DNA of 3,599 bases, from the IMG/VR virus record IMGVR_UViG_2698536484_000040, one strand, 5' to 3'. Position numbers and translations under genes: made by a program. The first letter of the stretch is position 1; every line of letters begins with the position of its first letter. The notes under the pieces are model-generated. The model had not been told where the DNA came from and did not search any database. It saw only the letters and a list, made by a program, of their open reading frames with translations. This DNA comes from a virus (lineage: Duplodnaviria; Heunggongvirae; Uroviricota; Caudoviricetes). Below are positions 1 to 3,599 of the stretch, piece by piece.

Positions 1-662
<662 letters not shown>

Positions 663-663
663 T

Positions 664-786
664 GGGAATAAGCAGGTTGAATGCGATTACATGTTATCTG
701 CATTAAGGCGCATGGAGTTGAGAGGGCACCTTAATGAAATATATGACGGTGTGATTGTTAATAAGAAAGAAGGAAACGCGGCATGA
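664..786 (+). pseudogene. Possible 3' remnant of a prophage gene truncated by the IS insertion (open frame from the IS boundary to TGA 784-786)
   Basis: The frame is open from immediately after the IS end (...NKQVECDYMLSALRRMELRGHLNEIYDGVIVNKKEGNAA*). Its stop overlaps the ATG of the next gene in an ATGA arrangement (ATG 783-785, TGA 784-786), the usual coupling geometry in phage operons. There is no recognisable domain, and it could be non-coding leader. Confidence 0.25.
718..745 (+). promoter_or_regulatory. Candidate sigma70-like promoter upstream of the 783 gene (TTGAGA, 16-bp spacer, TATATG)
   Basis: Hexamers read by eye: -35-like TTGAGA at 718-723 and -10-like TATATG at 740-745. The -10 is imperfect (G at position 6). 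Purely a sequence-pattern guess. Confidence 0.2.
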
Positions 787-1541
787 TCACTATTACCAAA
801 GGGCGACTGCTGACAATCAAGCAGTGGCGCGAAACATACGGACCGGGTAGCAACGTTGTACTGCCAGCAGAAGAAGCGGAAGAACTGGCACGAATTGCAC
901 TGGTATCGCTGGAAGCAGAGCCGATGGCAAAGATTATAGCTCATTACCCATTAGGAGTTGACGTAGGCAAACAAAAGTTCGTACAGGCCATTGGAGAGCT
1001 TCCTGACTTTGGCGGATATCTATTTGCCGCCCCGCCAGCGCCGGTAGTGCCGGAAGAAGCAACTCCGGAAAACGTAGAAATGCTCTCTGGCTATGTTTCC
1101 ACGTACAAATTAACCGATAGCGAGCGCGATATTGCTGCCGAAATATGGAACGCCTGCCGCACCGCCATGCTTCAGTCCGGAAACTTTCGGGAAAGCAAGA
1201 ATTCGTCAACCAATAATTTTCGGGAAATCCCGGAAGCGTCAACCAGCTCTCCGGTAACTCCGGCTCTTCTGCCTGGTGGTTTCACCATTGAGGAGGCGAA
1301 GGAATTACATGAAGACCTGGTACGCAGCCACATAAGCAAGGCCTTAAGTGGCGAAAAGATGAAAAAGAAAGATCGCGATGCTGATTTGCGCTGGATTCAT
1401 GGCGTTATAGTTCAGGCAGCGTGGTTTGTAAAAGCATCACTGGAGCAGAATGCACTATCGGGCAACTCTCCGGTAACTCCGGATGGTTGGATAAGCTGTA
1501 GTGAGCGAATGCCGGACGACAGGCAGGAGGTGAATCAATGA
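783..1541 (+). CDS. Uncharacterised prophage early-region protein (252 aa) with a Pro/Ser/Thr-rich repetitive linker; its C-terminus stops right after a GWISCSERMPDD motif that resembles the start of a DUF551-type domain
   Basis: ATG at 783 is preceded by a GAAGGA Shine-Dalgarno (769-774, 8-nt spacing). The ORF is long and co-directional with xis-int. Internal in-frame direct repeats are present (see repeat features). Stop TGA 1539-1541 overlaps the ATG of the next ORF. The DUF551 resemblance is from memory of the WI...LP(E/D) motif, not a search. Confidence 0.75.
   Translation: MITITKGRLLTIKQWRETYGPGSNVVLPAEEAEELARIALVSLEAEPMAKIIAHYPLGVDVGKQKFVQAIGELPDFGGYLFAAPPAPVVPEEATPENVEMLSGYVSTYKLTDSERDIAAEIWNACRTAMLQSGNFRESKNSSTNNFREIPEASTSSPVTPALLPGGFTIEEAKELHEDLVRSHISKALSGEKMKKKDRDADLRWIHGVIVQAAWFVKASLEQNALSGNSPVTPDGWISCSERMPDDRQEVNQ
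1247..1263 (+). repeat. Copy 1 of a perfect 17-bp direct repeat ctctccggtaactccgg inside the 783-1541 CDS (encodes SSPVTP)
   Basis: Exact string match with 1466-1482, read directly from the sequence. The copies are 219 bp apart (73 codons), in the same frame. Confidence 0.95.
1466..1482 (+). repeat. Copy 2 of the perfect 17-bp direct repeat ctctccggtaactccgg (encodes NSPVTP)
   Basis: Exact string match with 1247-1263. The shorter core aactccgg also occurs at 1061-1068 (encoding ATPE). Confidence 0.95.
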
Positions 1542-1621
1542 GCTGGCCTGATGCAATCGTAACTCTGGGGGTGGTATTCGCAGCAGCGTTTGTTGTGTTC
1601 TCGATTTGTCGATGGGGATAA
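1538..1621 (+). CDS. Micro-ORF encoding a 27-aa hydrophobic peptide MSWPDAIVTLGVVFAAAFVVFSICRWG (predicted single transmembrane helix); not in the supplied ORF track
   Basis: AGGAGG Shine-Dalgarno at 1524-1529, 8 nt before ATG 1538. ATGA overlap with the stop of the upstream gene. Stop TAA 1619-1621 lies 4 nt before the next ATG (1626), so the ORF exactly fills the gap in an otherwise gap-free operon. The hydrophobic core AIVTLGVVFAAAFVVFSI is flanked by a polar N-terminus and a basic C-terminus. Confidence 0.45.
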   Translation: MSWPDAIVTLGVVFAAAFVVFSICRWG

Positions 1622-1625
1622 CCAC

Positions 1626-1868
1626 ATGTTCGCTTTGATTCAACGCGGTCAGATATACACGGACAGAGCTGGATACCCCGTGGTGATTACTCGCATCACT
1701 GAGCACTCAGTGTTCTTTCGACGGATGGACGGACGATCCGGGCGGGTACGCATTGGTGAGTTAAACTGCCTGTTCGAACATATTGACCACCAGGAGTACC
1801 GCAAAATTCTCGCGGACACTGAGCAGGAAAAGCACCTGAAAAAATTACGAGCCATAAAAAGGAAGTAA
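1626..1868 (+). CDS. Small prophage protein (80 aa), DUF4222-like
   Basis: ATG 1626 follows a GGGGA motif (1614-1618). The ORF track's 1590 start is a TTG that would overlap the micro-ORF, so ATG 1626 is preferred. The translation MFALIQRGQIYTDRAGYPVVITRITEHSVFFRRMDGRSGRVRIGELNCLFEHI... matches my recollection of the DUF4222 pattern seen in enterobacterial prophage early regions. Family call is from memory. Confidence 0.65.
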   Translation: MFALIQRGQIYTDRAGYPVVITRITEHSVFFRRMDGRSGRVRIGELNCLFEHIDHQEYRKILADTEQEKHLKKLRAIKRK

Positions 1869-1871
1869 AGA

Positions 1872-2006
1872 ATGAATAAAGCATTTGAACGATGGGTCCA
1901 CCAGCGTTACGGCAATCGCTATGACCTGACGCGAGATGTTGACGGCTTCTACTGTCGTGAAGTTGTGAAGCGAATGTTTGAAGTGTGGTGCCACTGCCGT
2001 GGATGA
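1872..2006 (+). CDS. Micro-ORF encoding a 44-aa Cys-containing protein MNKAFERWVHQRYGNRYDLTRDVDGFYCREVVKRMFEVWCHCRG; not in the supplied ORF track
   Basis: AAGGAAG Shine-Dalgarno at 1859-1865, 6 nt before ATG 1872; this spacer contains the TAA stop of the upstream gene. Stop TGA 2004-2006 lies 18 nt before the xis ATG. It fills the only remaining gap in the operon. There are three Cys (in CRE and CHC), with no recognisable family. Confidence 0.45.
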   Translation: MNKAFERWVHQRYGNRYDLTRDVDGFYCREVVKRMFEVWCHCRG

Positions 2007-2024: not shown

Positions 2025-2279
2025 ATGCAGACAATCATCTATCAGATAACCCCCAGCAAATGGTGTACGGAGAGAGTCCTCATTGCATCAACAGGGCTAA
2101 AGCCTGGCACCATTGAGCGGGCAAGAAGAAAGTCATGGATGCAGGGAAAAGAATACCGCCATTACGCTGTAGAAGGTGATCCGGGGCACTACAGTGAATG
2201 CCTGTACAACATCGAAGAAATTATGCGATGGATCGAAAACCAGAAACAACCAGGTGCCAAAAATGCAAGTTCCGGTTAA
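2025..2279 (+). CDS. xis: Excisionase-like protein (Xis; prophage excisionase-like family), directly upstream of the integrase
   Basis: 84-aa ORF with a GAGGT Shine-Dalgarno at 2016-2020. The translation has the ...TGLKPGTIERARRKSWMQGKEYRH... core that I associate with the enterobacterial prophage excisionase-like family. The xis-then-int order on one strand is the canonical lambdoid arrangement. Confidence 0.8.
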   Translation: MQTIIYQITPSKWCTERVLIASTGLKPGTIERARRKSWMQGKEYRHYAVEGDPGHYSECLYNIEEIMRWIENQKQPGAKNASSG

Positions 2280-2312: not shown

Positions 2313-3599
2313 ATGAGTAACGCATCATACCCGACAGGCGTTGAAAACCATGGAGGATCACTCCGTATATGGTTTCACTATAATGGCAAACGTGTCAGAG
2401 AAAACCTCGGTGTTCCTGACACAGCCAAAAACCGGAAGATCGCTGGTGAACTTCGCACTTCCGTTTGTTTTGCAATCAGAATGGGGAGTTTCGACTACGC
2501 CGCGCAGTTCCCTAATTCCCCTAACCTGAAACACTTTGGTCTGGGAAAAAGAGAGATAACCGTTAAGGCACTTTCGGAAAAATGGTTGGACCTTAAGAAA
2601 ATTGAGATTTGTGCGAATGCACTTAATCGTTACCAGTCAGTAATTAAAAACATGTTGCCTATGTTGGGTGAGAAAAAACTGGTTTCATCCATAACAAAAG
2701 AGGATTTACTTTTCGCAAGGAGAGATTTGTTGACCGGTTACCAAAAGCTTTCTAATGGAAAGATTTCTTCCATAAAAGGGCGCTCAGTGGTCACAGTAAA
2801 CTACTATATGACAACCATAGCTGGAATGTTTCAATTTGCAACAGATAATGGTTATACCTCAGGAAACCCATTTAACGGTCTGGCACCCTTAAAAAAGTCC
2901 AAGGTAAAACCAGATCCTCTCACCCGTGACGAATTTATTCGTTTTATTGAAGCTTGCCGTCATCAACAAACAAAAAACCTGTGGATTCTCGCTGTATACA
3001 CGGGTATTCGTCACGGGGAGCTGGTATCGCTGGCATGGGAAGATATAGATCTTAAAGCAAGGACTATAACCATCCGTAGGAATTATACAAAACTTGGCGA
3101 ATTCACTCCACCAAAAACCGATGCTGGCACCGGAAGGACAATTCATCTGGTTCAACCAGCTATTGATGCTCTTAAAAGTCAGGCGGAAATGACCATGCTT
3201 GGAAAGCAACATTCTGTAGAGGTAAAGCAGAGGGAATATGGGAGAAGTACTGTGCATAAATGCACTTTTGTTTTTAGTCCTCAGGTAATAAAACAGCGGC
3301 AGTTTTCCGGACCGCACTATAAGGTTGACTCCATCAGGGAGTCATGGACAAGTATCTTAAAACGCGCAGGTCTGAGACACAGAAAATCGTACCAATCCAG
3401 GCATACTTATGCATGCTGGTCACTTGCCGCTGGAGCTAATCCTAGTTTTATCGCAAGCCAGATGGGCCACACAAACGCACAAATGGTATTCAATGTTTAC
3501 GGAGCATGGATGAAAGACAACAATCACGAACAGATAGAACTCCTTAACAAAAGACTATCTGAAAGTGTCCCATGTATGCCCCATAAGAAAGCTGGGTAA
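2313..3599 (+). CDS. int: Phage integrase, tyrosine site-specific recombinase (428 aa, complete), with an N-terminal arm-type DNA-binding region
   Basis: GGAGG Shine-Dalgarno at 2304-2308. Catalytic-domain motifs are present: LAVYTGIRHGELVSLAWEDIDL (Arg box), PPKTDAGTGRTIHL, SRHTYACWSLAAGANPSFIASQMGH (His/Arg box) and NVYGAWM (candidate catalytic Tyr). The N-terminus GSLRIWFHYNGKRVRENLG resembles the arm-binding domain of Rac-type (IntR-like) integrases as I recall them. Stop TAA at 3597-3599 coincides with the window end. Confidence 0.93.
   Translation: MSNASYPTGVENHGGSLRIWFHYNGKRVRENLGVPDTAKNRKIAGELRTSVCFAIRMGSFDYAAQFPNSPNLKHFGLGKREITVKALSEKWLDLKKIEICANALNRYQSVIKNMLPMLGEKKLVSSITKEDLLFARRDLLTGYQKLSNGKISSIKGRSVVTVNYYMTTIAGMFQFATDNGYTSGNPFNGLAPLKKSKVKPDPLTRDEFIRFIEACRHQQTKNLWILAVYTGIRHGELVSLAWEDIDLKARTITIRRNYTKLGEFTPPKTDAGTGRTIHLVQPAIDALKSQAEMTMLGKQHSVEVKQREYGRSTVHKCTFVFSPQVIKQRQFSGPHYKVDSIRESWTSILKRAGLRHRKSYQSRHTYACWSLAAGANPSFIASQMGHTNAQMVFNVYGAWMKDNNHEQIELLNKRLSESVPCMPHKKAG

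Follow-up and report, generated by a model that had tools for sequence, protein, structure and literature searches.

A predicted membrane micro-protein, a DUF4222 protein and their neighbours at the xis-proximal end of a lambdoid early-left region

The subject here is a set of four co-directional genes of a tailed phage (Caudoviricetes), found in a stretch of 3,599 nucleotides (nt) from the IMG/VR virus record IMGVR_UViG_2698536484_000040, the whole of which is referred to below as the window. The genes lie directly upstream of the excisionase and integrase genes (xis-int), at what is the promoter-distal end of a lambdoid early-left 'exo-xis' accessory region of the PhiR5_1/YYZ-2008 type. A preliminary description had regarded them as a single cassette, with an architecture of the host-kill, exclusion or toxin-like kind. 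The reading favoured here, with reasonable if incomplete confidence, is that these are real exo-xis genes, chained by stop/start overlaps, which form three independently shuffled accessory units that are neighbours in this lineage and are not one machine. In this regard, the genes are real and conserved, they are coupled, mosaic and assort independently, and family memberships and folds can be given for their products. Hundreds of genomes already have annotations for the region and for three of its genes, and a member of one of the families has been studied; what is new is a family of 27-residue micro-proteins which is widespread, which by its patterns of variation is under purifying selection, and which is effectively unannotated and unstudied. 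The four open reading frames (ORFs), together with the ribosome-binding motif of the second, are as follows.

783-1541 (+): ORF1, 252 residues, acidic (pI 5.0), an Eaa/DUF551-type mosaic protein with its DUF551 core deleted in frame
1526-1530 (+): Shine-Dalgarno motif GGAGG of the micro-ORF, embedded in the last ORF1 codons, as read from the sequence
1538-1621 (+): gene of the 27-residue micro-protein MSWPDAIVTLGVVFAAAFVVFSICRWG, a predicted single-pass membrane peptide, ATGA-coupled to ORF1
1626-1868 (+): ORF3, 80 residues, basic (pI 10.1), DUF4222, RgdR family
1872-2006 (+): ORF4, 44 residues (pI 9.0), a narrow Enterobacterales phage family

All four ORFs are thus present where the preliminary description had placed them, upstream of xis-int, and a purine-rich, Shine-Dalgarno-like motif precedes each of the four starts, as had also been claimed; that of the micro-ORF is a GGAGG 7 nt before the ATG. 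ATGA overlaps join the remnant of an upstream gene to ORF1 (783-786) and ORF1 to the micro-ORF (1538-1541), while gaps of 4 nt, 3 nt and 18 nt follow the micro-ORF, the DUF4222 gene and the 44-residue gene, respectively, such that the earlier figure of 4-18 nt was essentially right save for the one gap of 3 nt. Chance can be discounted for all four, since intact copies of each ORF are found in numerous other phages and prophages. Antisense ORFs of 68-112 residues were treated as shadows of the sense genes. Three of these are without a PHROG match, and the matches of those at 1455-1706 (-) and 1649-1855 (-) are short or marginal (phrog_23547, 2e-6 over 20 residues; phrog_31437, 0.009), both families probably having their origin in erroneous calls of antisense ORFs in this very region.

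The coupled micro-protein gene

The micro-ORF is found well beyond the window. Two scans of IMG/VR (tblastn, pattern scans) confirmed it in at least 492 and at least 470 stretches, its carriers including ArgO145, 933W and an rV5-like virulent phage, and it matches 70 phage records, among which lambda is absent. Of 5426 complete Escherichia coli genomes, 1349 contain a form of the MTWPE type, in up to 5 copies each, and 182 contain the MSWPD type of the window. Judged from these sequences, roughly one complete E. coli genome in four has a member of the family, as do Shiga toxin (Stx) phages of the 933W type and rV5-like virulent phages, and the family is under purifying selection.

Variation was followed in 240 copies, taken from 250 sequences (249 loci and the window). 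In 210 of the 240 copies the ATG of the micro-ORF shares an ATGA with the stop codon of the ORF before it; the length of this preceding ORF varies between 81 and 431 residues, and its C-terminal endings are of at least four unrelated kinds. The GGAGG motif is kept inside these unrelated C-terminal codings, for instance where they read QEV (CAGGAGGTG) or VED (GTGGAGGAT). Downstream of the micro-ORF the sequence also varies, and consists of the DUF4222 gene (at +4 nt), of terminator-like hairpins, or of a hok/sok locus at a distance of about 150 nt (L091 and L257); outside the DUF4222 context, GC-rich hairpins with T-runs, differing from locus to locus, stand directly after the micro-ORF stop (L087, L090, L172, L174 and others). 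Since such hairpins or hok/sok come next, the micro-ORF is usually the last gene of its transcription unit. Mean pairwise identity reflects these boundaries, at 0.91 within the micro-ORF, 0.66 at positions -15 to -1 and 0.33-0.40 in the further flanks, of which the upstream one gives 0.35-0.40.

Within these boundaries the changes are of the kind expected of a coding sequence. The 240 copies comprise 39 DNA variants which encode 13 peptides. The most frequent clade has 30 DNA variants; read in frame these reduce to 6 peptides, whereas the other frames yield 25-30 translations with stops in them, and the variable sites of this clade fall 7/5/19 at the first, second and third codon positions. 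Between clades, the ratio of non-synonymous to synonymous differences (pN/pS) is 0.15-0.6, with pS up to 0.68. The start, the position of the stop and the length are all kept, the stop codon itself alternating between TAA and TGA, and such replacements as occur in the peptide keep the hydrophobic character of its segment. RNA folding of the micro-ORF is no better than that of shuffles (z = +1.5). From this sequence evidence it is concluded that the micro-ORF is a real gene for a coupled micro-protein, the constant partner of which is the ATGA junction and no particular protein.

The micro-protein itself has, in all variants, a core of 17 residues with a mean Kyte-Doolittle hydropathy of 2.1-2.7, flanked by a charge of -1 on its N-terminal side and +1 on its C-terminal side; the family consensus is M[ST]WP[DE]A-hydrophobic17-CRWG. 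Positively charged flanks of membrane segments are retained on the cytoplasmic side (the positive-inside rule), and therefore a single-pass helix with its N-terminus out and its C-terminus in is predicted. In other words, in its 27 residues, its one hydrophobic helix and the positive charge on the C-terminal side, it is like the small single-pass membrane proteins of bacteria and phages. Tentatively, the family may be one of phage single-pass membrane micro-proteins that are always translated by termination-reinitiation, at the ATGA closing the last gene of an Eaa/Ea22-type array, and that act on a target in the host membrane and affect the outcome of infection.

Clearly less probable is that the micro-protein is a type-I-toxin-like or holin-like peptide that damages membranes, with the upstream gene gating its translation as mok does for hok. 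It is indeed small, with the single hydrophobic helix of a hok-like toxin, its translation is tied, as in mok/hok, to an overlapping upstream reading frame, and its gene often ends a transcription unit and adjoins hok/sok loci. Unlike mok/hok, however, its coupling partner is any of several unrelated proteins, and no antisense RNA family was detected with it. Near 1538-1621, on either strand, there is no Rfam match and no promoter-like site above chance, in consensus scans that are blind to new small RNAs, and the peptide has no similarity to any described family or known toxin family in Pfam, PHROGs, NCBIfam or PADLOC. Also against a toxin, 25% of E. coli carry the gene, as many as 5 copies to a genome, in early-expressed operons and with no recognisable antidote.

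The preliminary description held that two micro-ORFs of the set are missed by gene callers. This applies to the 27-residue ORF, which RefSeq annotation skips in both records checked; the 44-residue ORF is called by the Prokaryotic Genome Annotation Pipeline (PGAP), as WP_001030157.1. In GenBank the micro-protein is occasionally deposited as 'bacteriophage protein' or 'hypothetical protein', a search of papers for the peptide string 'SICRWG' gave 0 matches, and the exact peptide of the window is absent from a collection of 15 billion proteins. More than 1000 contigs bear the annotation 'hypothetical protein' for a 40-residue form with an N-terminal extension (MKIEYQDAAGGES followed by the 27-residue peptide), as at L005/L006 in Shigella flexneri and E. 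coli; it seems to originate at loci with a broken upstream gene, where gene callers lengthen the ORF. Apparent natural fusions, of DUF551 to the micro-protein and of DUF4222 to the 44-residue protein, proved to be an artefact of cluster membership once the sequences were read. An MTWPE-type micro-ORF lies at 2001-2084 of PP818812.1 (L089, 'Actinobacillus phage vB_Apl-pPE4'), with a hok context downstream as in 933W, and OM284015.1 ('Elizabethkingia phage EKP1') contains the 44-residue gene at 84% identity; the host labels of both records look doubtful, since the sequence in them is like that of E. coli Stx phages. The peptide with which public proteomics and peptidomics data of enterohaemorrhagic E. 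coli (EHEC) could be searched is MTWPEAFTTVGIAMAVALVVYSICRWG. With its gene in about 25% of complete E. coli genomes, the micro-protein is a cheap small-protein target in a medically relevant group of phages.

The DUF4222 protein, ORF1 and ORF4

ORF3 matches Pfam DUF4222 (PF13973) at 8e-14 and 51.3 bits, against a cut-off of 27, over profile positions 2-53 of 53. The same family takes in RgdR (2e-23, 82 bits), and the earlier statement that no function can be assigned to any of the four proteins is, as a result, too strong for ORF3, though it stands for the other three. RgdR (ECs1581) is a protein of 99 residues from prophage CP-933C/Sp7 of EHEC O157:H7 (Flockhart et al. 2012, PMC3378721), which activates LEE1 and type III secretion and represses motility (PMC3378721; review PMC10877973). 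Its binding to DNA is weak and non-specific, and its RGD motif (residues 20-22), with residue 20, matters for its activity (PMC3378721).

Beyond the shared Pfam family, both ORF3 and RgdR are small, basic and prophage-encoded, and their beta-barrel cores align, with R20-G21-D22 of RgdR opposite R7-G8-Q9 of ORF3. The RGD tripeptide as such is absent from ORF3, G8 and Q9 being invariant in the alignment of its xis-proximal subfamily. ORF3 is also shorter (80 versus 99 residues), being without a 13-residue N-terminal extension, and its gene stands beside xis in lambdoid phages, whereas rgdR is in a P4-like satellite, beside a primase gene. The ORF3 chain closes with a helix, EQEKHLKKLRA (...EQEKHLKKLRAIKRK), the xis-proximal subfamily keeping its pattern 'E-x-EH[LI]KKLR'. 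The AlphaFold2 model (mean predicted local distance difference test score, pLDDT, of 82) has a small barrel of five strands and then a long basic helix, which suggests an SH3/Tudor-like barrel joined to a basic helix as the fold. By analogy with RgdR, and from this modelled fold, ORF3 is most likely a small transcription-modulating cofactor which would act on host gene expression. A weaker proposal is that the xis-proximal DUF4222 proteins and RgdR could bind the beta lobe of RNA polymerase in the manner of UvrD and CarD, which would explain the pleiotropy of RgdR. The link to RgdR, taken with the fold, gives a testable hypothesis on how the xis-proximal proteins act, and were it true that host transcription is reprogrammed by them as well, a regulator switched on at induction would have gone unrecognised in many prophages.

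Homologues of DUF4222 stand directly before xis/int at four recombination modules, namely that with DUF1233-type xis, that of 933W with a helix-turn-helix (HTH) xis and an inverted int, that of phage 21 xis/int and a Klebsiella int. This position may speak of a link to recombination or just of accessory genes gathering there. The former has been considered in the form that the DUF4222 protein, with or without the 44-residue protein, is an accessory factor of site-specific recombination which helps or regulates Xis/Int or the expression of their genes, in place of a regulator directed at the host. In its favour, homologues lie immediately or nearly before xis/int at four or more different modules, and ORF3 is basic, with a fold compatible with DNA binding. 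RgdR, however, the sole studied member, is encoded in a P4-like element beside a primase gene and not beside xis, and acts on host promoters, and the xis-proximal end of the operon is where accessory genes accumulate in any case. We know of no recombination directionality factor with a fold of the ORF3 type, and a role of this kind is judged unlikely.

Several other candidates for kinship with ORF3 fell away. Gp05 of phi24B, a 'possible transcription factor' (PMC8614690), is a different, winged HTH protein and not the product of the DUF4222 gene; for vb_24B_1c, no paper was found in a literature search. RcbA of the Rac prophage, encoded beside xisR in K-12, has no similarity to ORF3 or ORF4, and lambda orf55 does not align with ORF3. 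Within the family, a DUF4222 protein of 100 residues (P0096) has an internal tandem duplication of 20 residues (GYPVKIIRSTDHSVFFKRMD repeated twice). In Stx2 records (LC567830, LC567840, LC567820 and others, and AJ431361), DUF4222 residues 1-36 and residues 28-44 of the 44-residue protein are encoded about 30 nt apart; in this deletion variant, annotated 'hypothetical protein', the pair appears to have collapsed into one ORF.

ORF1 is of a different nature, in that its composition is fluid. It matches phrog_60 at 1.3e-40, and of Pfam DUF551 (PF04448) it contains profile positions 1-16 of 68 only, at residues 235-250. A sibling of 304 residues (P0064), collinear with ORF1 and near-identical by eye, has the whole domain (positions 1-68 of 68, E 1.4e-14), and from this it follows that ORF1 is an in-frame deletion derivative, in which 52 residues are replaced by one arginine with the junction at codon R247 (about 1521-1523). 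The truncated end, ...PVTPDGWISCSERMPDDRQEVNQ, also closes mosaic proteins of 170-431 residues. Among the loci fetched, 87 different proteins occupy the ORF1 position, and these appear to be built from blocks that meet at recurring linkers (IALASLEAEP, APPAPVVPE, AMLQ, NSPVTP). The protein is hypervariable here while the neighbouring genes are constant; being hypervariable, and in the window domain-deleted, ORF1 is unlikely to be an obligate subunit of any fixed complex.

That Ea22 variants are mosaic and that DUF551 is a portable domain has already been described (PMC10834534). ORF1 resembles these variants in its block-wise build, and compared with the Eaa/DUF551 phage proteins, such as YfdS of E. 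coli CPS-53 and Ea22 variant V2 of Stx phages, it has the linker and the first 16 DUF551 positions, without the DUF551 core and without the Ead_Ea22 signature. Identity with Ea22 itself was rejected, as BLASTP against lambda Ea22 gives E 6.4 and no Ead_Ea22 match is found in Pfam or NCBIfam at E <= 0.1; the label 'Ea22' in record PV340545 is accordingly not supported. YfdS has been linked to peroxide sensitivity (as cited in PMC10834534).

ORF4 belongs to phrog_3871, with 95 homologues, and 30 cluster representatives among 1.84 billion proteins. The family motif is FE...RYDLTRD..G.Y.RE..K.M...W, corresponding to a conserved core of F5, E6, R16-Y-D-L-T-R-D22, G25, Y27, R29, E30, M35 and W39. 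The model (pLDDT 87) is a helix, a beta-hairpin and a helix, for which no fold match was found. The preliminary description had singled ORF4 out as containing cysteine, to which no functional weight can be given: among 25 homologues C28 is replaced by S, F or A, C41 by R, H42 by S, E or Y and C43 by L, H or R, and with no Cys or His invariant in the family a zinc-binding mini-protein was rejected. The profile of the family also matches nine stretches of a protein of 993 residues (P0323). The conserved RYDLTRDxxGxY hairpin appears to resemble a YD/Rhs repeat unit.

One module or separate units

Whether the four genes act together can be judged from how they are distributed. A scan of genome contigs with ORF3 gave 2 loci only, and for that reason diversity was sampled from IMG/VR and the phage collection. 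Among 80 IMG/VR loci selected by the MTWPE-type micro-ORF, all 80, counted as sequences, are without the DUF4222 gene, the 44-residue gene and DUF1233-type xis within 2.5 kb. Conversely, DUF4222 homologues stand without either micro-ORF in phages of the 933W type, in phage 21 and in a Klebsiella phage, beside xis/int of four different types. The 44-residue gene is found in five other contexts (T1-like phages, the nin region, Fels-1 and Klebsiella phages among them): it is without DUF4222 in Fels-1 and Klebsiella phages, it follows a DUF551 gene among the tail genes of T1-like virulent phages that have no int/xis, and in the nin region it forms the C-terminal part of an ORF of 80 residues.

Put together, the preferred reading is that of three units. 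The first (a) would comprise the Eaa/DUF551-type mosaic protein, here without its DUF551 domain, and the 27-residue membrane micro-protein; the overlap and the Shine-Dalgarno motif between them are observed, and the micro-protein would be translated by ATGA termination-reinitiation from any gene that happens to precede it. The second (b) would be the DUF4222 protein, with its SH3/Tudor-like barrel and basic helix, as a putative cofactor acting on transcription by analogy with RgdR, and the third (c) the 44-residue helix-hairpin-helix protein. The genes would probably be expressed early after induction or infection, on a transcript that also serves xis-int, with ORF1 and then the micro-protein made in fixed order and the micro-protein presumably inserting in the inner membrane. 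Most likely, the effect of each unit would be to adjust, in the manner of other exo-xis genes, either host physiology or the choice between lysis and lysogeny.

Several points weigh against this reading. Similarity was the basis on which loci were sampled, and there is redundancy among them; hence the co-occurrence counts are of sequences and not of independent events. In the window's own lineage, of 80 loci chosen through DUF4222, 67 have the micro-ORF, the DUF4222 gene and the 44-residue gene side by side, and there may be functional cooperation within that lineage. The translation of the micro-ORF is a prediction. For the second unit, ORF3 and RgdR are about 20% identical over the whole alignment, the local BLASTP match covering 11 of 27 residues at E 6e-4, ORF3 has RGQ where RgdR has RGD, and the C-terminal helices differ. 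A Foldseek search with the ORF3 model ranks MscS, PWWP, TraI and KOW barrels first, none at E <= 0.001, and the likeness of the modelled barrel to Tudor domains that bind RNA polymerase is not specific. Finally, no experiment on any of the four proteins was found, and the functional statements are made by analogy.

The contrary view, that the four genes are one host-kill, superinfection-exclusion, anti-defence or toxin-like module whose parts act together, draws on their tight packing and translational chaining, on the hydrophobic peptide among the components, on the linkage in 67 of 80 loci just given and on a position that is a known home of accessory genes. As set out above, though, the components assort independently elsewhere, and ORF1 is hypervariable and domain-deleted while its neighbours are constant, which would be unexpected of an obligate partner. 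In addition, PADLOC gave 0 families at E <= 1 for all four proteins, and there is no match for them to the toxin-antitoxin families in Pfam, PHROGs and NCBIfam. With independent assortment and no PADLOC match, the toxin-like or exclusion-module reading that had been proposed is unsupported, and a joint module of any such kind is decidedly improbable. The preliminary description had itself made its cassette depend on the micro-ORFs being conserved as proteins, which they are, and on the genes occurring together, which they do in one lineage only; judged by these conditions of its own, the cassette is neither disproved nor borne out as a unit. Since the four-gene 'module' is, on the preferred reading, a by-product of mosaic recombination, the units should be addressed separately in experiments.

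The idea that the conserved 84 nt are no protein gene at all, and instead mark a recombination boundary, act at the RNA level or form the conserved 3' flank of a mobile module, is very improbable, for although the block coincides exactly with mosaic junctions, with unrelated sequences upstream and downstream of it, is unannotated in RefSeq and encodes in the window a peptide missing from the 15-billion-protein collection, its variants converge on few peptides in frame with the codon-position and pN/pS pattern given above, its hydrophobicity, start and length are kept through a TAA/TGA stop swap with a conserved Shine-Dalgarno motif upstream, and its RNA neither folds better than shuffles nor belongs to an Rfam family.

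Lineage, early-left context and the IS911 insertion

The remaining features of the window, which provide the context of the four genes, are the following.

1-662 (+): 3' part of the insertion sequence (IS) IS911, with the C-terminal 217 codons of transposase orfB at 1-654 and the right inverted repeat at about 639-662
663-786 (+): remnant of a phage gene, 124 nt, its last 41 or so codons, in frame from 665
2025-2279 (+): excisionase gene xis of the DUF1233 type, annotated xisR (Pfam DUF1233, 2e-29; phrog_539, excisionase)
2313-3599 (+): tyrosine integrase gene int (Pfam Arm-DNA-bind_2, 2e-24; Phage_integrase, 5e-18)

Positions 663-2320 of the window have 99.9% identity with PhiR5_1, a temperate phage, and with prophages of 61 complete E. 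coli genomes. Of the 5426 complete E. coli genomes, 2938 match some part of the region, as do 396 phage records, Stx-converting phages accounting for many of the latter. In PhiR5_1 the order is kil-gam-bet-exo, further small ORFs, Ea22-like genes, ORF1, the DUF4222 gene, the 44-residue gene, xis and int, with which the gene order of YYZ-2008 agrees; the prophages of the 61 genomes likewise have ORF1, the DUF4222 gene, the 44-residue gene, xisR and int in this order, with bet/exo/gam/kil upstream. All four genes thereby lie between the red/kil genes and xis, on the xis-int strand, and the lambdoid early-left accessory position which the preliminary description had assigned to them is borne out. 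The xis product is 27% identical to XisR of Rac (E 4e-7).

The exo-xis region affects lysogenisation and prophage induction, most of its genes being uncharacterised (PMC3824215, PMC7093339, PMC8614690), and several of the lambda genes in it influence the lysis-lysogeny decision or RNA polymerase (PMC3824215, PMC7093339, PMC8614690, PMC9239242). In position and strand, within the early-left operon, the genes of the window are like those of lambda (ea22, ea8.5, orf55, orf60a, orf61, orf63, orf73), and like them they are small, non-essential, mosaic accessory genes; they differ in that the four proteins have no homology to the lambda proteins compared. A consensus scan of 600-2400 for promoters and terminators found nothing above shuffled expectation, and an Rfam scan found no family, its sole sub-threshold match, to a snoRNA, being due to chance. 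With no such signal above chance between the genes, a single transcript running into xis-int fits, and by analogy with lambda biology this would start at pL.

Upstream, the IS element matches Pfam rve (2.7e-32) and NCBIfam transpos_IS3 (9.5e-74), which places it in the IS3 family, and its name comes from the PGAP product in matching genomes, 'IS3-like element IS911 family transposase'. IS911 ends at 662 and phage homology begins at 663. The remnant at 663-786 matches profile positions 200-230 of 230 of phrog_9263 (E 5e-17) and is a homologue of YYZ-2008 gp07, whose ORF of 119 residues ends ...GNKQVECDYMLSALRRMELRGHLNEIYDGVIVNKKEGNAA; in other words, IS911 was inserted inside the gp07-homologue gene directly upstream of ORF1. 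The IS911-phage junction of the window is in none of the 5426 complete E. coli genomes. By a polar effect, the insertion probably lowers or alters the expression of the set of genes downstream.

At the other end, the integrase gene in relatives adjoins mlrA/yehV or yecE-yecN attachment (att) sites. Closely related integrases, WP_000063640 and WP_000063650, are encoded beside two different chromosomal genes, the neighbours being mlrA in one case (L001, 8958-9659) and a DUF72 gene with yecN in the other (L003, 8028-9273), neighbourhoods which we take to be the known Stx-phage attachment regions yehV and yecE.

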